From positions 72,070 through 136,069 of the forward strand of contig CBDAQY010000003.1 of NCBI GenBank assembly GCA_965199215.1: DNA of 64,000 nt. Direction: 5' to 3'. Every line of letters begins with the position of its first letter. Within the stretch, counting starts at the first letter, position 1. The position numbers and the translations under genes are program-made. Below are positions 15,135-24,045 of this stretch, piece by piece. The stretch comes from Acidobacteriaceae bacterium. Its GTDB lineage: Bacteria > Acidobacteriota > Terriglobia > Terriglobales > Acidobacteriaceae. The notes beneath the pieces were generated by a model that saw only the letters and a program-made list of their open reading frames with translations, had not been told where the DNA came from and did not search any database.

Positions 15135-17891
15135 GTGAACCCGCCGTCCCTCCTCCCCGAAGTCCCGTCCCCCCTCCTCGAATCGAGCGCCATTGCCCTT
15201 GAGTGGCCGCGCCTCCGCGAGCACATCGCCACCCGCACCACCTCGCCTCTCGGCCGAGCCTGGATCACGGCCCTGGAGCCGTCCTCCGACCTCCTGTGGA
15301 TTGAGCAACAGCATCAACGCACCGCCGAACTCCGCGCCATGCTTACCGCCGGAGGCACCTTCGACTTCAATGGCCTCTTCGATCCAACCCTGCTGCTGGA
15401 GAAAGCGCGCATCGACGGCTCCGCTCTCGAATCGCTCGAAATACTCAACCTCCTCAGCGTCGCCGAGCGAGTCGCCGCCTGGCGCAACCTCTTCGCCTCC
15501 GCCGAAGCCCGTCGCAACAACGGTCTCGTCTCAGCCACCAGCATCGCGACCCTTACCGCCCCATTACTCGACCACGACCTCGCCCCGCTCCTCCGCACAC
15601 TCCGCGGCAAGATTGAACCCGACGGCTCGCTCTCAGACGACGCCAGCCCCGAGCTCCGCCGCATCCGTCGCGCCATGGAGCGCCAGCACCGCGCGATCGA
15701 AGAGTCCCTCCGCAAGTCCCTGCGGTCCCTGGCAAGCGAGGGCAGTACGAGCGCCGGCGGCGGTTCGCTACGAGACGAACTCATCACCATCCGCGGCGAC
15801 CGCTTCGTCATCCCGGTCAAAGCGGAGTTCCGCCGCCGCGTCCCCGGCGTCATCCACGGAGCTTCTTCTTCTGGGCAGACTGTGTTTGTGGAACCCCTCG
15901 AAACCATCGAGCAAAATAACGAACTCGTCCGCCTCCTCGACGAAGAACAATCCGAGATACACCGCATCCTCGTCGCCCTGACCCGCGCTCTCGGTGAAAA
16001 CGCCACGGCCCTCCACCTCGGCACCGCCATCCTCGCCGAAGTTGAATCTCACATCGCCCGCGCACGCTTCGCCAACGACCTCGACTGCACCCGCCCCCTC
16101 TTCATTCAGGACGATGCAAATCGCAGAATGCAGGACGATGCAAACCGAGGAATGCAGGGCGATGTAAATAGAGGAATGCAGGACGATGTAAATAGAGGAA
16201 CTCAGGACGATGTAATTAGAAGAACGCAGGGCGACTTAAATAAAAGTGTCATGCTGAGCGAAGCGCAAAGCGCGCAGTCGAAGGACCTGCTGTTAAGCCC
16301 AGCGAACGCCCCTCAAATCTCCCTCACCGCCGCCCGCCATCCTCTCCTCGAACTCCGAATGCGCACCGCAGCCCGCGAATCTGGCGAAGCCGCCAAATCC
16401 CCCATCCCGCTAACCATCGCTCTCCCCAACGACGCCCGCCAGCTCATCATTAGTGGCCCTAACACCGGCGGCAAAACCGTCTCCCTCAAAACCACCGGCC
16501 TCCTCGCCTTAATGGCGCAGGCCGGAATTCCCGTTCCCGCCGAAGAGGCGAAGTTTCCCCTCTTCCACTCCATTTACGCCGACATCGGCGACGCCCAGTC
16601 CATCGAGCGCAACCTATCCAGCTTTTCCGCCCACGTCGTCAACCTCGACCGCATCTCCCGCCTCGCAGGGCCGGCGTCTCTGGTCTTATTAGACGAACTA
16701 GGCTCCGCCACCGACCCCGAAGAAGGCGCAGCACTCGCTGTGGCCATCGCCTCGCACTTCCTCGCCACCCGGGCCTGGTGCTGCATCACCACCCATCTCA
16801 CCTCGCTCAAGGTCTACGCCGCCAACCACGCCGGAGTCCTCAACGCCGCCGTCGGCTTCGACCAGGAGACCCTCTCGCCCACCTACCAACTCCGCCTCGG
16901 CGTTCCCGGAGCCTCAGCCGGCCTCAACATCGCCGCCCGCCTTGGCATGTCGCCCGCCATCATTGAAGAAGCCCGCGCCCAGATGACCACCCAGACCGCC
17001 GACATCGGCGCCTTCCTCGATCAACTTCATGACCAGCTTCGTGCCGCGGAGAGCGAACGCGACAGCCTCCGCGCCCGCGAAGAAGAACTCCGCAAAGAAC
17101 GCATCAAGCTCGACATCGAGGGCCGTGCCGAACAAAAAGCCCGCATTCGCGAGCTCGAACAAAAGCTGGAGTCTCTCATGCAGGACTTCGCCACCCAGGT
17201 AAAAGACACCGTCAAGCTCATCGACGACAAGACCCTCAAGCAGAAGATCTCCCGCGACGCCGATCTCCGCCTCGCCCGCGCGAAGCGTGAATTTTCCGAA
17301 CAGTTCAAATCCACTGTAGTCGCTCACAACACCGGTGCCGACAAGCACCCAGACAAGGCCTCTGCCTCTAAATCGGCCCTGCAATCGGCCCAGCGCACCA
17401 TAAAACCTGGCGACCTCGTCACCCTTAAATCACTAGGCCGGCAGGCCCGAGTCGAACGCGTGATCGACGCCAGAAACTACGAGGTCTCCATCGGCCCCAT
17501 GAAGATGCGTGCCGTCCTAGACGACATCACCGACGTCCAATCGGTGGCTGTCGTCACCCCCTTACAAGCAGCCCGCAAGCGTGGAGGCATCACCGTCTCT
17601 ACCTCCGCAAACTCCGGCTCCGCGTCGGACTACGCCTCCGACTACATGCCCTCCGAGATCAACGTCATCGGTCGCACCGCCGACGAAGCCGAGACCGAGG
17701 TTGAACGCTTCCTCGACCGCGCCTTCCTCGCTGGCCTCCCCAGCATCCGCATCGTCCACGGCACGGGCATGGGCATCCTCCGCAGAACGTTACGCGAATA
17801 CCTGCGCTCACACCCCCACGTCACCACCGTCACCGAACCCCCACAAAACGAAGGCGGCCAGGGAGCCACGGTAGTCGAACTCCGCCAGTAA
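15135..17891 (+). CDS. mutS2: endonuclease MutS2 (with a repeat-derived insertion)
   Basis: Walker A GPNTGGKT, LLDELGSATDP and C-terminal Smr domain INVIGRTADEAETEVERFLD...IVHGTGMGILR. GTG start. 918 aa, which is long for MutS2. Confidence 0.9.
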   Translation: MNPPSLLPEVPSPLLESSAIALEWPRLREHIATRTTSPLGRAWITALEPSSDLLWIEQQHQRTAELRAMLTAGGTFDFNGLFDPTLLLEKARIDGSALESLEILNLLSVAERVAAWRNLFASAEARRNNGLVSATSIATLTAPLLDHDLAPLLRTLRGKIEPDGSLSDDASPELRRIRRAMERQHRAIEESLRKSLRSLASEGSTSAGGGSLRDELITIRGDRFVIPVKAEFRRRVPGVIHGASSSGQTVFVEPLETIEQNNELVRLLDEEQSEIHRILVALTRALGENATALHLGTAILAEVESHIARARFANDLDCTRPLFIQDDANRRMQDDANRGMQGDVNRGMQDDVNRGTQDDVIRRTQGDLNKSVMLSEAQSAQSKDLLLSPANAPQISLTAARHPLLELRMRTAARESGEAAKSPIPLTIALPNDARQLIISGPNTGGKTVSLKTTGLLALMAQAGIPVPAEEAKFPLFHSIYADIGDAQSIERNLSSFSAHVVNLDRISRLAGPASLVLLDELGSATDPEEGAALAVAIASHFLATRAWCCITTHLTSLKVYAANHAGVLNAAVGFDQETLSPTYQLRLGVPGASAGLNIAARLGMSPAIIEEARAQMTTQTADIGAFLDQLHDQLRAAESERDSLRAREEELRKERIKLDIEGRAEQKARIRELEQKLESLMQDFATQVKDTVKLIDDKTLKQKISRDADLRLARAKREFSEQFKSTVVAHNTGADKHPDKASASKSALQSAQRTIKPGDLVTLKSLGRQARVERVIDARNYEVSIGPMKMRAVLDDITDVQSVAVVTPLQAARKRGGITVSTSANSGSASDYASDYMPSEINVIGRTADEAETEVERFLDRAFLAGLPSIRIVHGTGMGILRRTLREYLRSHPHVTTVTEPPQNEGGQGATVVELRQ
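16107..16247 (+). repeat. 24-bp tandem repeat, about 5.9 copies, in frame inside mutS2
   Basis: Units start at 16107, 16131, 16155, 16179, 16203 and 16227 (caggacgatgcaaatcgcagaatg and variants). They encode Q[DG]D[AV][NI][RG][RG][MT] octapeptides. AT-richer than the flanking sequence. Confidence 0.9.
16246..16293 (+). repeat. repeat family B, short unit, in frame inside mutS2
   Basis: gtgtcatgctgagcgaagcgcaaagcgcgcagtcgaaggacctgctgt, translated VMLSEAQSAQSKDLLL. Confidence 0.85.
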
Positions 17892-17969: not shown

Positions 17970-19160
17970 TCACACTTGATCGAGCAATCCCTGCAGGTCT
18001 GCTGTGTACTCATCCAGCTTTTTTTGTCCACCGTTGAAATCTCTCGTATTCAGGATGAAGGCGGCATCGATACCGTTCGGCCTGGAATAAGTCATGCTGC
18101 TCGTTCCGGGCAGGCTGCCGCTGCGGCTCGAACGCGGTGCCCGGCCACCAAGCCCCCACACCGCATGGCGTGCGCTGAACAACGCAAGCGTCTCCGCGTT
18201 CGTCATTAGGCCACCGGCACTGTCGTGAAGTTCCGGGATATACCCCCCGCCATACGCCGACGGGACAAGGTCGCTCGACCTTGGCTTCAATGCCGTGGGC
18301 GCGGAGTTTGGGCAAACATACCAGACCTCTCGCGGGTTCTTCGCTGTATCAAGCAGACGTGAAAGGTAGACGTTCTCAACGTGAGTGTCCTGGCCAAGTC
18401 CTGTCCTGATGAAGTTGATGTAAGACTGTCCGCTCACCTTTTCAATCACCAGTCCAAGCAGCATGTATCCGAGGTTTGAATAAGACTTCTTATACGTGCT
18501 GTTGAAGTCCTGGCTGCCCGGCACAAACTGTAGTTGCTTGCCATACATGTACTGCGCTAGCTCCAGCTTCGAAGGAGGCCGATCTAACTTGAGTTCAAGG
18601 GCTATCCGCCGCACGGCGAACATGGGATCGCTGTCAGCTCCGGGAACATGGGTGCCGTCCTTCGCTATGACGCTTTCGTGATCATTCCATCCGCCCGCAT
18701 GGTCGACGAGATGCTGCACCGTAATCTCGTCAATGTGTGGGTCCGGCTTGTCTTTACGCACTGCGGGAGAACTGATTCCGAGCAACGGAAACACCTTTAC
18801 GTCCAGCTCTAGGTCGCCTCGCAAGTGAAGCGTTGTAATTGCAGAGCACGTAAACATCTTGCTGCAACTCGCAATCCTAAAAAGGCTGCTGCTATCGACA
18901 GGTGCGTAGCCCGAAGGTGGCTTCACTGCGTAAGAACGACTCAGGATGAGGGAGCCGTTACGGCAGATTGCGATCTGGCAGGCGCTCACCCCAGCCTGCT
19001 CCAGGAATCTCTTCGTCATGCCGTCAATCGCAACGCCGGTTGCGGACGCTGGAAAATCTGTCTGGCCCGCGCCCGGTAGTGTCGAGAACACAGAAAGAGT
19101 GCTACTTGGGCAGGCGAGAAATGTCGCGTAGGACTGAAGGAATTGGCGCCGCGACGTCAT
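17970..19160 (-). CDS. beta-lactamase-fold serine hydrolase with Tat-type signal
   Basis: MTSRRQFLQS leader, SxxK (SCSK) and YSN motifs. Lower GC by eye. Confidence 0.8.
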   Translation of the reverse strand: MTSRRQFLQSYATFLACPSSTLSVFSTLPGAGQTDFPASATGVAIDGMTKRFLEQAGVSACQIAICRNGSLILSRSYAVKPPSGYAPVDSSSLFRIASCSKMFTCSAITTLHLRGDLELDVKVFPLLGISSPAVRKDKPDPHIDEITVQHLVDHAGGWNDHESVIAKDGTHVPGADSDPMFAVRRIALELKLDRPPSKLELAQYMYGKQLQFVPGSQDFNSTYKKSYSNLGYMLLGLVIEKVSGQSYINFIRTGLGQDTHVENVYLSRLLDTAKNPREVWYVCPNSAPTALKPRSSDLVPSAYGGGYIPELHDSAGGLMTNAETLALFSARHAVWGLGGRAPRSSRSGSLPGTSSMTYSRPNGIDAAFILNTRDFNGGQKKLDEYTADLQGLLDQV

Positions 19161-19378
19161 GAACCTCTCCAGATAGTTTCATTTGGGCCCACAAATCTCA
19201 ACTACGTCTGTGAAGACTATCCCCTGATACCTCGCCAGAATCAAGTACTTTTGCTTGCTGCAGCCTCCATGTCTTGCCGCTTCCGCTCTATACCTCTGCT
19301 TTTGAAATTCTGCACCCTTGACCAGCGCCACTCATAATTCGCTCTTTGTTAGATCTGATAATTGCCGCTCGCCCTTAC

Positions 19379-20980
19379 CTAATGATTCGGCTTCGCAAGC
19401 CCCGCCGCCTTCAACAAATCCGCCCGAAACATCTCCATCATCTCCTCGCGTGATGCCTCATCACGCGCCCGCAAGATCGCCGAAGGATGCAGTGTCGCCA
19501 TCACCCGCTCCGCATATGGCGTACTCAACACCTCCCCGCGCTGCTTCATCAGCCCAAACGTCCCGCCCAGCATGGACTTCGCCGCCGAAGCCCCCAGGCA
19601 CAACACCACCTCTGGTCTGACGGCATCGATCTCTGCCAGCAGCCACGGTTTGCAGGCCATGATCTCTGAAAGCCGAGGATTCTGGTGCAGCCGCAGCTTA
19701 CCTCGTTGCACAAACTTGAAATGCTTAACCGCGTTGGTCACGTACACCAGCGAGCGATCGATTCCGACCTCCGCCAGCACCTGATCCAGCAGCCTCCCCG
19801 CTGGCCCAACGAACGGCAGTCCCTGTGTGTCTTCCTGGTCGCCCGGCTGCTCTCCCACCATCACCAGCCTCGCACCCACCGGCCCCTGCCCGCCGACCAC
19901 CTGGGTCGCATGGCAATAAAGCTCACATCCCTTGCAGGCTGGCAGTGCCTCTCGTATCGCTTCAAGCGTACGTTGCTGCGGCACGAAGGGCGCAGCAGAA
20001 GTCTTCTCCTCTTGCCTCGCAACCATCGCCTTCACCCGCGTCTTCGATTGCGTAATCAGCGTCGGCAGTGCTGCTACTTCGGGCAGGTTCTTCCAGTACC
20101 GCACCGGCATCTCGGAGCGCATCGCCTGCGGGTTCAGCCGCGCGGGATTGTAGATGCTTGCGTAGTAGCTCCGCCAAAGCGTCTCCAGCTCATCCTCATC
20201 CGGAGCCGACTCACGCGGCACGCCCGCCGACCAGATCAACTGCTTCGTTCCCGGGTCCCACGAAACACTTGCATCCGGCGTCAGAATGCTCCACCGCATA
20301 ATCGCAAATCGTTCTGCAAAGAAAGGCGCTGCCAGCGGCAGGATCCGATGATCAGGCTGATACCACGCGATGAAGTGTTCGCACTCGTCTTCCGTAAGTT
20401 CGGCGCCTGCGGTCTCCGGCTCGCATTGCTCGACCTCGCTCTTTGCGATACCGAACGGTGTCGGCGTCGCGAGCACCAGATGACGCGTCTCCACCGGCGT
20501 CTGCGACGCGGCCCTGGCGGGCGTCAGCACTTCGTCAAGCACCTCCGGGCGATGCTCCATAAGCAGGACCTCGCCTGGCCTCATCACCTTGCGGAACCGC
20601 ACAAAAGCGTGCATCTTGTGCAGATCGCGTTTCACCTGAGCAGCCAGCCGGTTCAACTCCGCTACGTCCGCATCAGTCTCAAGCCTCAGCAGATTGCGAT
20701 CACTCTGCAGGCGGTACAGCACCCGGTAGAGCAGGTTCCAGCGTTCCTTGCCGCGATGGACCGCCGCCACTTGCGCCTGCTCCAGGAAGCTCCTCGAGGT
20801 ATGTGGCTGCGCAATCGGACTTCCCGTTGGAACTGGTTCAAGCTCAAAGGAAAGTGCAAGCGTACTCGCGACTGCCGCATCCTGAAAGTCGATCTCCTGA
20901 GGCGCATAACCGTCATGCAGCGCATCCCGAGCCGCCTCCCGCCACGCCGTAAAGTCAGGTTGAACCAGAACACGCTTCAT
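19379..20980 (-). CDS. DUF4130-like domain fused to a UdgX/family-4-type uracil-DNA-glycosylase-fold domain
   Basis: The C-terminal half has GEQPGDQED, LPFVGPAG, NAVKHFKF, KLRLH and HPSAILR. The N-terminal ~250 aa resembles the TIGR03915/DUF4130 partner domain. Confidence 0.8.
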   Translation of the reverse strand: MKRVLVQPDFTAWREAARDALHDGYAPQEIDFQDAAVASTLALSFELEPVPTGSPIAQPHTSRSFLEQAQVAAVHRGKERWNLLYRVLYRLQSDRNLLRLETDADVAELNRLAAQVKRDLHKMHAFVRFRKVMRPGEVLLMEHRPEVLDEVLTPARAASQTPVETRHLVLATPTPFGIAKSEVEQCEPETAGAELTEDECEHFIAWYQPDHRILPLAAPFFAERFAIMRWSILTPDASVSWDPGTKQLIWSAGVPRESAPDEDELETLWRSYYASIYNPARLNPQAMRSEMPVRYWKNLPEVAALPTLITQSKTRVKAMVARQEEKTSAAPFVPQQRTLEAIREALPACKGCELYCHATQVVGGQGPVGARLVMVGEQPGDQEDTQGLPFVGPAGRLLDQVLAEVGIDRSLVYVTNAVKHFKFVQRGKLRLHQNPRLSEIMACKPWLLAEIDAVRPEVVLCLGASAAKSMLGGTFGLMKQRGEVLSTPYAERVMATLHPSAILRARDEASREEMMEMFRADLLKAAGLAKPNH

Positions 20981-21017
20981 CCGCTTAAACTTCTGATGCC
21001 TCGCGACGCAAGCAACT

Positions 21018-22271
21018 CTAAAGCGATCCGCTCAACGCACTGATCGGGGCAAAAAGATCGAGCTGCGCTGCGACCGCCTCAACAGGAGCTTCCCTTCGAC
21101 TCAGCGGCAGGTAGTCCGTGGTCACCAGGTAAGGCAGCCCCTGTTTCACACGCACATGCAGCTTGCGCAGGTCGTCCAGCATCAGCCGATGATACTTGCG
21201 GATAGAAAGGATCCGCTCAACATTCTTGTATCCGATCCCGGGTACCCGCAGGAGCGCCTCCTTCGGCGCGAAATTCACGTCCACGGGGAAGAACTCGGGG
21301 TGCGCCTTTGCCCAGCTCGTCTTCGGATCTTCAGTCAACGAAAGCGACGGGTTCTCCTCCGATGTCAGTTCACTCGCTTCAAAACCATAAAACCGCATCA
21401 GCCAGTCCGACTGATACAACCTGTGCTCGCGCACCAGCGGCGTAGGCTTCAGCGGCAGCCGCGTGTCGGCCTCGGGAAATGGTGAAAAGCCTGTGTAGTA
21501 CACCCGCTTCAACTTGTATTCGCCGTAGAGATGGGTCGCCGTCGAAAGTATCTGCCGGTCGCTTGCTGCCGTCGCTCCCACCACCATCTGGGTCGACTGT
21601 CCCGCCGCCGCAAACCGCTGAGGCTTTTTGTGCTCCGCCACGCGAGAAGCCCTGCGCTCCTCCTCAGACTCAATCGTCTTGGTGTGGATCTGACCCATCG
21701 TCGCTTCAATCACCGACGACTTCTTCTCCGGCGCAAGCTGCACCAGGTCCTTCTGTGTCGGCAGTTCGATGTTTGCCGACAGCCGGTCCGCAAACAGTCC
21801 GGCCTTTGCGATCAGTGCCTCGCTACAACCAGCGATCGTCTTCAGGTGGATGTATCCGCCGAAAGAATGCGTCTCCCGCAGCTTTCGCGCAACCTCAATC
21901 ACTTGCTCCATCGTGTAATCCGGCGATTGGATGATCCCCGAGGAAAGAAAAAGCCCCTCGATATAATTGCGTTTGTAAAAATCAAGCGTCAGGCTTACCA
22001 CCTCATCCGGCGTAAACCTCGCTCTTTGGATGTCCGATGAGACCCGGTTAACGCAGAAGACGCAGTCGTACGTGCAGTAGTTCGTCAACAGAATCTTCAG
22101 CAGGGAGACGCAACGCCCGTCCGGCGTGTAGGAATGGCAGATCCCTTCTCCATCGGAATGTCCAACACCTCTTCCGTTCCCCGCGCGCTTTGACCCAGAG
22201 GAGGCGCAGGACGCGTCGTACTTCGCTGCGTCCGCCAGGATCTCTAGTTTTTGCTGTAGGTTTATCATCAA
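21018..22271 (-). CDS. putative DNA modification/repair radical SAM protein
   Basis: CX3CX2C (CTYDCVFC) and a C-terminal helix-hairpin-helix PGIGYKNVERIL. It lies 37 bp upstream of the UDG-fold gene on the same strand. The ATG at 22268 is an alternative to the TTG at 22271. Confidence 0.85.
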   Translation of the reverse strand: MMINLQQKLEILADAAKYDASCASSGSKRAGNGRGVGHSDGEGICHSYTPDGRCVSLLKILLTNYCTYDCVFCVNRVSSDIQRARFTPDEVVSLTLDFYKRNYIEGLFLSSGIIQSPDYTMEQVIEVARKLRETHSFGGYIHLKTIAGCSEALIAKAGLFADRLSANIELPTQKDLVQLAPEKKSSVIEATMGQIHTKTIESEEERRASRVAEHKKPQRFAAAGQSTQMVVGATAASDRQILSTATHLYGEYKLKRVYYTGFSPFPEADTRLPLKPTPLVREHRLYQSDWLMRFYGFEASELTSEENPSLSLTEDPKTSWAKAHPEFFPVDVNFAPKEALLRVPGIGYKNVERILSIRKYHRLMLDDLRKLHVRVKQGLPYLVTTDYLPLSRREAPVEAVAAQLDLFAPISALSGSL

Positions 22272-22311
22272 GGGTGCGTTAGGCGCTCTTTGATTATAAG
22301 CGAAGTAAAAG

Positions 22312-22324
22312 CGAACTGTTCACG
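22312..22324. promoter_or_regulatory. candidate operator half-repeat CGAACtGTTCACG
   Basis: Lies in the divergent promoter region between the radical SAM gene and the MFS gene. A second copy is at 22371-22385. Confidence 0.3.
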
Positions 22325-22370
22325 TCCGGTGGAACTCCCCGATCTCACGGCGGCAGCACTTTTTTTGCAT

Positions 22371-22385
22371 CGAACAAAGTTCACG
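22371..22385. promoter_or_regulatory. candidate operator half-repeat CGAACaaaGTTCACG
   Basis: Second copy of the CGAAC..GTTCACG motif, 59 bp from the first. Confidence 0.3.
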
Positions 22386-22431
22386 AAGAGTCTTAGAAGA
22401 GAGCGAGATATTACAATCTGTTGGAGAGATT

Positions 22432-24045
22432 TTGCCTGAAACAGCCGTAGCCGAAAAACCAGCAGAGCAAGACCACGGCGCCTGGAAGCCGCAGGCCAAC
22501 CCGTGGCTTATCGCCGCCACAGTTGCCCTCGCTGCCTTCATGGAGGTCCTCGACACCTCCATCGCCAACGTGGCCCTGCCTCACATCGCGGGCAATCTTG
22601 GCGCCAGCACCGATCAGGGCACCTGGGTGCTCACCAGTTATCTCGTCTCGAACGCGATCATCCTTCCCGTCGGCGGATGGGCATCGTCCGTCATCGGGCG
22701 CCGCAACTTCTTCATGCTCTGCATCATCATCTTCACGATCTCGAGCTTCCTTTGCGGCCTCGCACCCAGCCTTCCCCTCCTGTTGCTCTTCCGCGTCTTT
22801 CAGGGAATCGGCGGCGGCGGTCTGCAGCCGATGGCGCAGGCCATTATGGCGGACTCCTTCGAAGAAAAGAAGCGCGGCCAGGCTTTCGCTCTCTACGGCC
22901 TCGTCGCCGTCCTCGCCCCCTCCATCGGCCCGACCATCGGCGGATGGATCACCGACAACTACTCCTGGCGCTGGATCTTTTACATCAACATTCCCGTTGG
23001 CATTCTGGCGCTCGTCTTGACCCAGCGCCTCGTGCAGGATCCGCCCTGGATTAAGGCCGACCGTAAGAATCTCCTAAACCTCGACTACGTCGGCCTAGGC
23101 TTTCTCACGCTCGCCATGGGCGGCCTTCAGATCATGCTCGATAAGGGTGAAGAGAACGACTGGTTCGCCTCCAACTTCATTCGTTCCTTTGGCATCATGT
23201 TCGTACTTGGCATGATCGGTCTCATCTGGTGGGAGTGGCAAAAGAAGAATCCGCTGATGAACATCAAGCTTTTCAAGTTCAAGAACTTCGCCATCTGCTG
23301 CCTGCTCATGATGCTGGTCGGCGGAGTCCTGAACGCCGCTACCGTCCTTCAACCACAGTTCCTGCAGCAACTCCTCGGGTACACAGCCACCAACGCTGGC
23401 ATGGCCCTCACCGCCGGTGGCATCGCACTCGTCATCGTCATGCCGGCAGCCGGCATCGCAACCGGAAAGTTCGCCGCTCGCAACCTCGCTGCTGTCGGAT
23501 TTGCCTTCTTCGCGGCCGCCTACTACTGGGTCTCCACCCACGTCACCCTCGACATGAGCTTCGGCGAGGCCTCGTTCCTCCGCGTCATTCAGATGATCCC
23601 CATCCCGTTCTGCTTCATCTCCATCACCAATGCCGCATACGTCGGCTTGCCTCGAGAGGCCTCCAATCAGGTCTCGGGCATTATTAACTTCGTCCGCAAC
23701 GTCGGCGGCAGCATCTTCATCGCCGTCACGGGAGCCCTCGTCACCAACCGCTCCCTCTATCATCAGTCTCGCCTCGCCGAGCACATGCAGTCCGCCAACC
23801 CGCAGTACCAGCAGCAGTCCCAGGCTCTCTCCGGATACTTCAGCGGCGCCGGTGTAGGCGGCGGAGCTGGAATGAATATGGCCCACGCCAGCATCTATCA
23901 GCAGTTGAACCAGCAGGCCTCCGCGATGGGATACATGGACGTCTACCGGATGCTCTGCTGGATGTCCTGCATCATGGTTCTCTTCGCCTTCCTCCTCAGC
24001 AAGAACCGTCCCGGCCAGGGTGCTCCCGAAGGCGCCGTCCACTAA
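22432..24045 (+). CDS. MFS transporter, DHA2 (EmrB/QacA-like, 14-TMS) family
   Basis: FMEVLDTSIANVALPHI, GWASSVIGRRN, LFRVFQGIGGG and a 537-aa length with about 14 hydrophobic segments. TTG start after GGAGAG. Confidence 0.85.
   Translation: MPETAVAEKPAEQDHGAWKPQANPWLIAATVALAAFMEVLDTSIANVALPHIAGNLGASTDQGTWVLTSYLVSNAIILPVGGWASSVIGRRNFFMLCIIIFTISSFLCGLAPSLPLLLLFRVFQGIGGGGLQPMAQAIMADSFEEKKRGQAFALYGLVAVLAPSIGPTIGGWITDNYSWRWIFYINIPVGILALVLTQRLVQDPPWIKADRKNLLNLDYVGLGFLTLAMGGLQIMLDKGEENDWFASNFIRSFGIMFVLGMIGLIWWEWQKKNPLMNIKLFKFKNFAICCLLMMLVGGVLNAATVLQPQFLQQLLGYTATNAGMALTAGGIALVIVMPAAGIATGKFAARNLAAVGFAFFAAAYYWVSTHVTLDMSFGEASFLRVIQMIPIPFCFISITNAAYVGLPREASNQVSGIINFVRNVGGSIFIAVTGALVTNRSLYHQSRLAEHMQSANPQYQQQSQALSGYFSGAGVGGGAGMNMAHASIYQQLNQQASAMGYMDVYRMLCWMSCIMVLFAFLLSKNRPGQGAPEGAVH

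Follow-up and report, generated by a model that had tools for sequence, protein, structure and literature searches.

Several features of the systems closest to the one considered here are already known. Three curated family models, TIGR03916, TIGR03915 and TIGR03914, and the linkage between them have been described, as have SOS or other damage regulation of the genes, the crosslinking of standalone UdgX to DNA, a predicted complex of the radical S-adenosylmethionine (SAM) protein with DUF4130, and a suggestion by Aravind et al. that DUF4130 is related to mutagenesis. According to the literature, the COG1573-COG4277 operon is SOS-regulated in Verrucomicrobia, Alphaproteobacteria and Bacteroidetes, and in Acinetobacter, which is without LexA, radical SAM and TIGR03915-family genes are among the damage-response genes that depend on DdaA. 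In addition, the gene-neighbourhood network of Aravind et al. ties SRAP and ImuB-C to diverse SOS repair systems, including radical SAM genes. A published AlphaFold 3 model predicted the complex of the radical SAM protein and DUF4130 with an ipSAE of 0.80, and a 2026 preprint likened this complex to MiaB and RlmN, the type of nucleic acid not being determinable. Here, we analysed a stretch of 64,000 nucleotides (nt) from the genome of an Acidobacteriaceae bacterium (contig CBDAQY010000003.1), the whole of which is referred to as the window, and examined a chromosomal two-gene operon within it that belongs to the widespread TIGR03916/TIGR03915-TIGR03914 (COG4277-COG1573) family.

The results indicated that the copy in the window is an ordinary member of an already catalogued, mechanistically unsolved DNA-damage-response family. 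As for what the operon does, our best explanation is a tentative one, to which we give somewhat less than even chances: it would be a damage-response module working on DNA, in which the radical SAM protein, DUF4130 and UdgX act by the mechanism proposed below. UdgX and radical SAM were not mentioned together in our literature search, likely because the UdgX proteins that have been studied are solitary and of the mycobacterial type, and DUF4130 was treated only computationally in the literature found. An original prediction for this operon, which had been made from the DNA letters, was silent on the published SOS or damage regulation, on the published AlphaFold 3 complex and on the solitary mycobacterial UdgX.

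Gene layout and protein domains

The operon consists of two open reading frames (ORFs) on the minus strand, gene 1 at 21018-22271 and gene 2 at 19379-20980. The original prediction had described gene 1 as a radical SAM gene at 21018-22271; this ORF was confirmed, and its start shifts from a TTG at 22271 to an ATG one codon on, at 22268, which is the start in the public gene call and in homologues and gives a gene at 21018-22268 (minus strand) for a protein of 416 amino acids (aa). Gene 2 (19379-20980, minus strand) encodes a fusion protein of 533 aa, in which a DUF4130/TIGR03915 domain is followed by a UdgX-type uracil-DNA glycosylase (UDG) domain. The gap between the two genes (20981-21017, minus strand) is exactly 37 nt, as had been stated, and neither a promoter-like nor a terminator-like site was found in it; in many relatives, the genes overlap by 1-4 nt. 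The proposed linkage to TIGR03916, TIGR03915 and TIGR03914 also held, as all three curated models matched far above their cut-offs (547.8 bits against 343.5, 188.3 against 112.25 and 272.5 against 189.95, respectively). Each of the motifs CTYDCVFC, PGIGYKNVERIL, GEQPG, NAVKHFKF, KLRLH and HPSAILR was verified by translation, and the set lies far beyond chance. Homologues of the fusion protein carry the NCBI name 'UdgX family uracil-DNA binding protein', and the organism of the window is a Granulicella-like member of the Acidobacteriaceae, with G. aggregans as its nearest named relative (79-88% identity).

The TIGR03916 (rSAM_link_UDG, COG4277) match covers residues 5-386 of the gene 1 protein, the homologues of which in Acidobacteriaceae show 76-93% identity, and 850 clusters of a 50%-identity library belong to the family at E <= 1e-30. 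The predicted radical SAM [4Fe-4S] site is the CX3CX2C motif CTYDCVFC (C65, C69 and C72; 22053-22076, minus strand), which the original prediction had pointed out and the three cysteines of which are invariant in alignments with an identity as low as 35%. A C-terminal helix-hairpin-helix (HhH) predicted to bind DNA had been proposed as well, and this region (21189-21284, minus strand), which includes PGIGYKNVERIL, was recovered at the level of the family: used as a family profile, the C-terminal region matched the ComEA-related DNA-binding protein 2duy (E = 2.3e-8), whereas the match of the single sequence to Pfam HHH_3 (E = 6.8e-4) scored 20.1, below the gathering score of 27. Residues P343, G344 and G346 of the region are invariant. 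These features strongly support the view that gene 1 encodes a radical SAM enzyme whose ComEA-like HhH tail is predicted to bind DNA. The Pfam Radical_SAM match was weak, the next NCBIfam matches of the protein were ThiH, MoaA and HydE, with E values of about 1e-3 and confined to the cluster loop, and profile searches of the PDB yielded no solved relative of the core beyond this loop. Upstream of the CX3CX2C motif stand C44-H45, C53 and a cysteine at or beside position 21 (aa 21-53; 22110-22208, minus strand). This set is kept in the subfamily to approximately 41% identity and gone from more distant members, and it may be an auxiliary metal or cluster site.

One specific version of the proposed explanation concerns the radical SAM protein directly. 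It would be a light-independent (dark) photoproduct lyase resembling spore photoproduct lyase (SPL) and would reverse an ultraviolet (UV) pyrimidine dimer or dihydropyrimidine, while UdgX would remove the uracils that arise from deaminated lesion cytosines. The radical SAM partners linked to SOS systems have been termed 'SplB-like' in the literature, the operon is under SOS control in relatives, and the hosts are soil bacteria facing UV and desiccation, all of which speak for this version. However, SplB membership was rejected, since neither the protein nor its family profile matched an SPL model (NCBIfam, E <= 0.01) or an SPL structure (PDB, E <= 1). In addition, the Erill group lists SplB (COG1533) and the COG4277 operon as separate SOS members, and a lyase of this kind would leave the requirement for DUF4130 unexplained. 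We regard this version as decidedly unlikely.

The N-terminal part of the fusion protein (aa 1-305; 20066-20980, minus strand) is the DUF4130/TIGR03915 domain, for which PF13566 (DUF4130) scored 134.2 bits against a cut-off of 27. The matches to DUF4130 and TIGR03915 each come in two stretches, which are split by an insertion of approximately 60 aa at aa ~133-200 (20381-20584, minus strand). A fusion of 533 aa with an N-terminal domain of approximately 250 aa had been predicted; the fusion stands, but the domain measures approximately 305 aa because of this lineage-specific insertion, compared with a median of 241 aa. Only close Granulicella-type relatives share the insertion, which is missing in P0082 and P0118 and much enlarged in P0115 and P0119, and it holds the conserved HHLVLATPTPFG and two near-invariant cysteines, C186 and C200. 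The residues that are kept in at least 90% of 75 DUF4130 sequences are mainly arginines, aromatic residues and histidines. Profile searches of the PDB found no relatives of DUF4130 with a solved structure. The AlphaFold2 model of the fusion protein (overall pLDDT 70, higher in the UDG half) was informative for the UDG half only, and the top Foldseek matches obtained with it were all UDGs, which did not illuminate the fold of DUF4130.

A different role for this domain has been proposed from gene context by Aravind et al., who predicted DUF4130 to be a mutagenesis-related enzyme that may modify thymines and linked it to the SOS network. In such programmed mutagenesis, the radical SAM protein and DUF4130 would turn normal bases, e.g., thymine, into uracil-like ones, which UdgX would convert into blocked abasic sites for error-prone SOS bypass, and the reported co-regulation of the operon with error-prone polymerases in SOS regulons would fit. 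However, gene context is the sole source of this idea, and no polymerase gene adjoins the operon in the window, nor was one seen beside it in the examined loci. The structural analysis in the 2026 preprint, moreover, found DUF4130 to be without identifiable catalytic residues. We consider programmed mutagenesis very unlikely.

The C-terminal part of the fusion protein (aa 306-523; 19412-20065, minus strand) had been called a family-4-like UDG of the UdgX type, and our searches placed it nearer to UdgX than to family 4. The family-4 model TIGR00758 scored just 135.9 bits, compared with the 272.5 bits of TIGR03914, and the Pfam UDG match scored 116 bits. In phmmer searches against the PDB, the UdgX of M. 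smegmatis (6ail) was the best match (E = 7e-57), while family-4 UDGs gave E values of 1e-25 to 1e-29; the UdgX chains scored 187-197 bits, compared with 92-106 for family 4. Similarly, Foldseek aligned the predicted domain to UdgX (6ajr and 6ajo) with a TM score of 0.88 and approximately 50% identity, compared with TM scores of 0.80-0.84 for family-4 UDGs. The published definition of the UdgX class comprises motif A, GEQPG; an R-loop with R107 and H109; and motif B, HPS(S/A)(L/V)(L/V)R. On the minus strand of the window, we found motif A GEQPG (aa 376-380; 19841-19855), TNAV (19727-19738), the R-loop GKLRLH (19685-19702, with the codon of H432 at 19685-19687) and motif B HPSAILR (19469-19489), the last with an isoleucine at the first L/V position, which is a conservative change.

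The alignment further showed that residues E52, Q53, N91, R107, H109, H178 and R184 of UdgX correspond to E377, Q378, N416, R430, H432, H498 and R504, respectively. With a deletion of two residues in the loop, KLRLH aligned on KRRIH (HMMER, 6ail), so that H432 falls on H109; the histidine of KLRLH had been taken for the crosslinking residue of UdgX, and the alignment to 6ail bears this out. Residues G427, K428, R430, L431 and H432 are invariant in 29 relatives. C349, C352, C443 and C461 in the UDG half are also invariant and, judging by their expected position, would be the family-4 iron-sulfur ligands. The evidence strongly supports a true UdgX-type domain with all of the UdgX catalytic signatures, and crosslinking to DNA is predicted for it. 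A Bradyrhizobium homologue, Bll3023, which may or may not be of the fused type, has been reported to be active.

Co-conservation of the two genes across genomes

We scanned one genome per species with an alignment of 8 radical SAM sequences and obtained 80 loci, the six-frame ORFs of which were searched with hidden Markov models built from relatives of the window's proteins. The alignment biases these loci to radical SAM proteins that carry the motif DGRC(V/I)SL and are close to that of the window; the share of the fused form is therefore not generalisable beyond the sampled loci. The sample spans Acidobacteriota, Myxococcota, Planctomycetota, Gemmatimonadota, Verrucomicrobiota, Bdellovibrionota, Actinomycetota and the Alpha-, Beta- and Gammaproteobacteria (Pseudomonadota), i.e., at least 8 phyla. 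In 75 loci, the gene immediately after the radical SAM gene, in the same orientation, encodes DUF4130, and 3 of the 5 remaining loci end at a contig edge. The two genes, which the original prediction had described as a conserved pair, are thus co-conserved across many phyla in 75 of the 77 informative loci (97%). The same two-gene layout was found in a RefSeq example from Paracoccus yeei. Only L003 and L016 have the radical SAM gene without a downstream DUF4130. The radical SAM gene of L003 precedes small ORFs without a family match and a PD-(D/E)XK restriction-endonuclease-like gene; although labelled Verrucomicrobia, this locus carries the promoter repeat of Acidobacteriia and is 68% identical to the window, and it may be mis-binned.

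The two proteins are also found as one. In P0244, P0247 and P0249 (666-729 aa), the radical SAM protein is fused to DUF4130, and P0313 was grouped with these fusions. In L048 (7515-10727), the radical SAM, DUF4130 and UDG parts all lie within one ORF; this locus comes from a metagenome bin, and a sequencing error that deleted a stop codon is possible. Because of the 97% adjacency and the occasional fusion into one protein, it is strongly supported that the radical SAM protein and DUF4130 are an obligate pair, adjacent or sometimes fused. That the two genes of the operon are functionally unrelated and merely co-transcribed has nothing specific in its favour other than the ability of UdgX to function alone. 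Against it stand the adjacency, the frequent overlap of start and stop codons, and three fusion combinations, and the fusions bring it close to refuted.

The third component is less constant. A fused UDG domain was found in 65 of the 75 DUF4130 loci; GEQPG is present in 63 of these 65 domains and the R-x-H loop in nearly all. Two further loci of the 75 have a degenerate UDG (L056) or only a remnant of one (L061). Another 7 of the 75 have DUF4130 but lack a UDG within 8 kb, and the pair is not followed there by a conserved third gene. In a locus from Gemmatimonadales (L026, 1932-3812), DUF4130 is fused to DUF72 in place of the UDG. We take DUF72 to be a predicted endonuclease IV-like TIM barrel; if this is right, it would be a second kind of base-excision-repair accessory on the DUF4130 scaffold. 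Conversely, five loci from Mycolicibacterium and Rhodococcus (L081-L085) encode a standalone UdgX of 208-214 aa with no radical SAM or DUF4130 gene within 6 kb. The neighbours in these loci are unrelated (hydrolase, catalase, MarR and decarboxylase genes), and phage-type integrases lie nearby in two of them.

These patterns bear on an alternative in which UdgX acts first and the radical SAM protein with DUF4130, held in cis, radically releases the His-C1' adduct or the shielded abasic site and so regenerates the enzyme. UdgX forms a covalent bond with DNA, the removal of which the UdgX authors ascribe to proteases or to pathways that depend on RecA. A fusion would hold the radical SAM partner at the adduct. 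The alternative stays alive because the fused UDG is of the crosslinking type (almost always so in the sampled loci, and never an ordinary family-4 enzyme) and because of the DUF4130-DUF72 fusion in L026, in which the hint at abasic sites depends on our assumption about DUF72. However, the radical SAM-DUF4130 core is without a UDG in seven sampled loci, the standalone UdgX genes of mycobacteria and Rhodococcus are without radical SAM or DUF4130 neighbours, and radical cleavage of a histidine-sugar bond has no precedent. The core is reportedly without a UDG in most of the family according to its TIGRFAM description, which also counts against this order of events. We judge it unlikely, and we are similarly doubtful of the broader claim that the radical SAM protein with DUF4130 is a dedicated radical enzyme for the UdgX-His-C1' adduct or for protein-capped or oxidised abasic sugars generally. 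If true, 'excise, cap, then radically release' would extend base excision repair by a new branch under SOS control and would be the first case of an enzyme undoing a crosslink between a glycosylase and DNA.

Damage regulation and the proposed mechanism

The sole sigma-70-like promoter found in 19000-22500 was TGAACA-18-TATAAT, with 10 of 12 consensus matches; its putative -35 hexamer TGAACA lies at 22317-22322 and its putative -10 hexamer TATAAT at 22293-22298 (both minus strand). It is strongly supported that both genes form one transcription unit behind this single promoter. The spacer is filled by the direct repeat GTTCGCTTTTACTTCGC (22300-22316, minus strand), which has the form TTCGC-N6-TTCGC and a period of 11. 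The exact repeat occurs once in the 64 kb, at the operon promoter, and a position-weight matrix ranked this site at the top with 23.9 bits, while no other site in the window exceeded 15.9. The same repeat, in the same place abutting the -10 box, was present in 11 other Acidobacteriia loci, and a TATAAT-like hexamer follows it in most of the Acidobacteriia relatives. Within the conserved repeat, GTTCgcttttaCTTC of the window agrees in 7 of 8 positions with GTTC-N7-GTTC, the LexA box consensus of Alphaproteobacteria. Because the repeat shares the period-11 direct-repeat architecture of that box, we read it as a probable LexA-type operator in Acidobacteriia, a candidate whose chances we put slightly above even. 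The LexA box of Acidobacterium capsulatum is said to be a period-11 direct repeat of this type. Two palindromes, GAACtttGTTC and GAACaGTTC (22363-22379 and 22310-22322, minus strand), were dropped as they are not conserved in relatives; both resemble half-spaced LexA boxes, and GAACaGTTC overlaps the -35 hexamer.

Among the sampled loci, LexA boxes are concentrated in the 120 nt upstream of the radical SAM gene. The exact alphaproteobacterial box GTTC-N7-GTTC was found there in 30 loci and the exact box of Beta- and Gammaproteobacteria, CTGT-N8-ACAG, in 7, and 7 further betaproteobacterial loci have CTGT-N8-CCAG with one mismatch. Exact LexA boxes, carried by relatives in Alpha- and Betaproteobacteria, are approximately 100 times as dense upstream of the radical SAM gene as in the rest of the loci (1.13 Mb).

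The mechanism that we tentatively favour begins with this regulation. DNA damage would lift the repression at the operator, most likely through the loss of a LexA-type repressor, a step that we infer for the window and that is well supported in relatives. The radical SAM-DUF4130 complex would then bind DNA, probably single-stranded or gapped. Such a complex on DNA is suggested because of the fusions, the adjacency, the HhH domain and the published AlphaFold 3 model, and DNA would be the substrate because the HhH profile matches ComEA and because 65 loci have DUF4130 joined to a DNA glycosylase. The 5'-deoxyadenosyl radical may act on a damaged pyrimidine or sugar, and the tethered UdgX domain would excise the uracil left or exposed at the site, after which H432 would keep the domain covalently on C1' of the abasic sugar. 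Both the excision of uracil and the capping by H432 are predicted because the catalytic set of UdgX is fully conserved. The cap would shield the abasic site from breakage until gap filling or recombination completes the repair. The radical step would precede or accompany the UdgX step rather than follow it, because some lineages have the radical SAM-DUF4130 pair but no UDG, and mycobacteria have a solitary UdgX.

Several points weigh against this explanation. First, the order of the steps is drawn from phyletic patterns only, in a sample biased to close radical SAM relatives. Second, a fused suicide glycosylase would make the complex a single-use one and leave a large DNA-protein adduct, which is hard to square with efficient repair. 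Third, no substrate, product or phenotype of the radical SAM protein or of DUF4130 was found in the searchable literature, in agreement with the statement of the original prediction that the substrate of the radical SAM protein has not been established. Fourth, the AlphaFold2 model of the radical SAM protein, built with 26 close homologues, was poor (pLDDT 60.5) and gave no structural clue; its matches in Foldseek searches of the PDB were all generic folds of the TIM-barrel and radical SAM kind, and no match reached E <= 0.001. Finally, there is no exact LexA consensus at the operon, the one GTTCN7GTTC of the window lying elsewhere, and which regulator binds the repeat is a guess. In Xanthomonadales (L014, L022, L024, L027, L033 and L042), a palindrome of the form (G/T)TCTC(A/G)-N5-TGAGAC lies within approximately 60 nt upstream of the radical SAM gene, with none of the tested LexA boxes, which suggests that the operon is under a different regulator there and that its regulation is not uniformly by LexA.

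Genomic setting and comparison with known systems

The neighbours of the operon, encoding MutS2, a beta-lactamase-family serine hydrolase and a divergent EmrB-type efflux transporter, are unrelated to it. Neither protein of the operon matched a PADLOC defence-system model, the radical SAM gene was present in only 10 of 50,697 phage records, and its plasmid-borne copies are mainly on large non-mobilizable replicons; on these grounds, a reading of the operon as a defence system or mobile element was rejected. The same results bear on the idea that the operon modifies nucleic acids instead of repairing them, either as a DNA system for epigenetic marking or hypermodification, which might serve against phages, or as an RNA modifier of the RlmN/MiaB type. 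The curated name 'DNA modification/repair' and the comparison of the complex with MiaB and RlmN in the 2026 preprint are in line with it. However, the operon adjoins unrelated housekeeping genes with no methyltransferase or nuclease partner, is found in damage regulons and has a glycosylase specific for DNA as a fused part, and together with the defence, phage and plasmid results this leaves the modification idea highly improbable.

The window has other features of its own. The MutS2 gene (15135-17891, plus strand) contains an in-frame tandem repeat at 16107-16242 (24 nt x 5.7) that encodes octapeptides resembling DDANRRMQ and DDANRGMQ. No Rfam families or tRNA genes were found in the window. 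The overall GC skew (1-64000) is -0.20, a very strong strand asymmetry. The third-position skew is -0.39 to -0.56 in most plus-strand genes and +0.21 to +0.64, measured on the coding strand, in most minus-strand genes; therefore, the skew follows the DNA strand and not the gene. The minus strand holds approximately 72% of the examined coding bases. This asymmetry suggests an unusually strong replication-linked mutational bias in the window, e.g., through cytosine deamination, and it would be speculation to tie it to the uracil-handling operon. The serine-hydrolase gene just downstream of the operon (17970-19160, minus strand) has a third-position skew of -0.01 and a third-position GC content of 0.65, unlike its neighbours, and may have arrived or been inverted recently.

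The family to which the operon belongs is large, occurs in many phyla and is wired to damage responses by at least two unrelated regulators, LexA and DdaA. If the reaction of the radical SAM protein and the role of DUF4130 were solved, bacterial DNA repair would gain a new step built on radical chemistry, and UdgX, at present chiefly a tool for uracil mapping and base editing, would be placed in a physiological context. In the sampled loci, across at least 8 phyla, the UdgX-type domain comes as an accessory fused to the radical SAM-DUF4130 machine, in contrast to the solitary UdgX studied in M. smegmatis. To this picture, the copy in the window adds only a candidate Acidobacteriia operator and the lineage-specific DUF4130 insertion.

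Several known systems resemble parts of the operon. SplB (COG1533) is a radical SAM enzyme like that of the operon, acts directly on DNA and is reported to be SOS-regulated in several phyla; however, the sequence kinship between them is limited to the generic cluster loop, and SplB belongs to a separate COG and has no DUF4130 partner. RlmN, Cfr and MiaB also combine a radical SAM core with a nucleic-acid recognition module, and the AlphaFold 3 model puts DUF4130 where MiaB has its TRAM domain, but these enzymes act on RNA, are not damage-regulated and have no sequence match to the radical SAM protein. The UdgX half can be compared with SRAP, HMCES and YedK, proteins associated with the SOS response that attach covalently to DNA at abasic sites; the likeness is purely functional. 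Abasic sites are shielded by these proteins. They differ in having an unrelated fold, a cysteine thiazolidine instead of a His-C1' bond, no glycosylase step and no radical SAM protein in cis.

The likeness to the UdgX of M. smegmatis (MSMEG_0265; 6ail and 6ajo) is much closer, with shared motifs and the E value of 7e-57, identity of approximately 50% and TM score of 0.88 given above. That protein is solitary, approximately 210 aa long and set among unrelated neighbours, whereas the domain in the window forms the C terminus of a DUF4130 fusion beside a radical SAM gene. The R-loop in the window is two residues shorter than that of M. smegmatis, with R106 replaced by leucine and K110 by glutamine, and crosslinking is still predicted for it. 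Finally, the operon shares with the known TIGR03916/TIGR03915-TIGR03914 family the same three domains, in the same order and on the same strand, as well as the same motifs, and it is distinguished within this family by a gap of 37 nt in place of a gene overlap, the insertion of approximately 60 aa in DUF4130 and an Acidobacteriia-specific promoter repeat.

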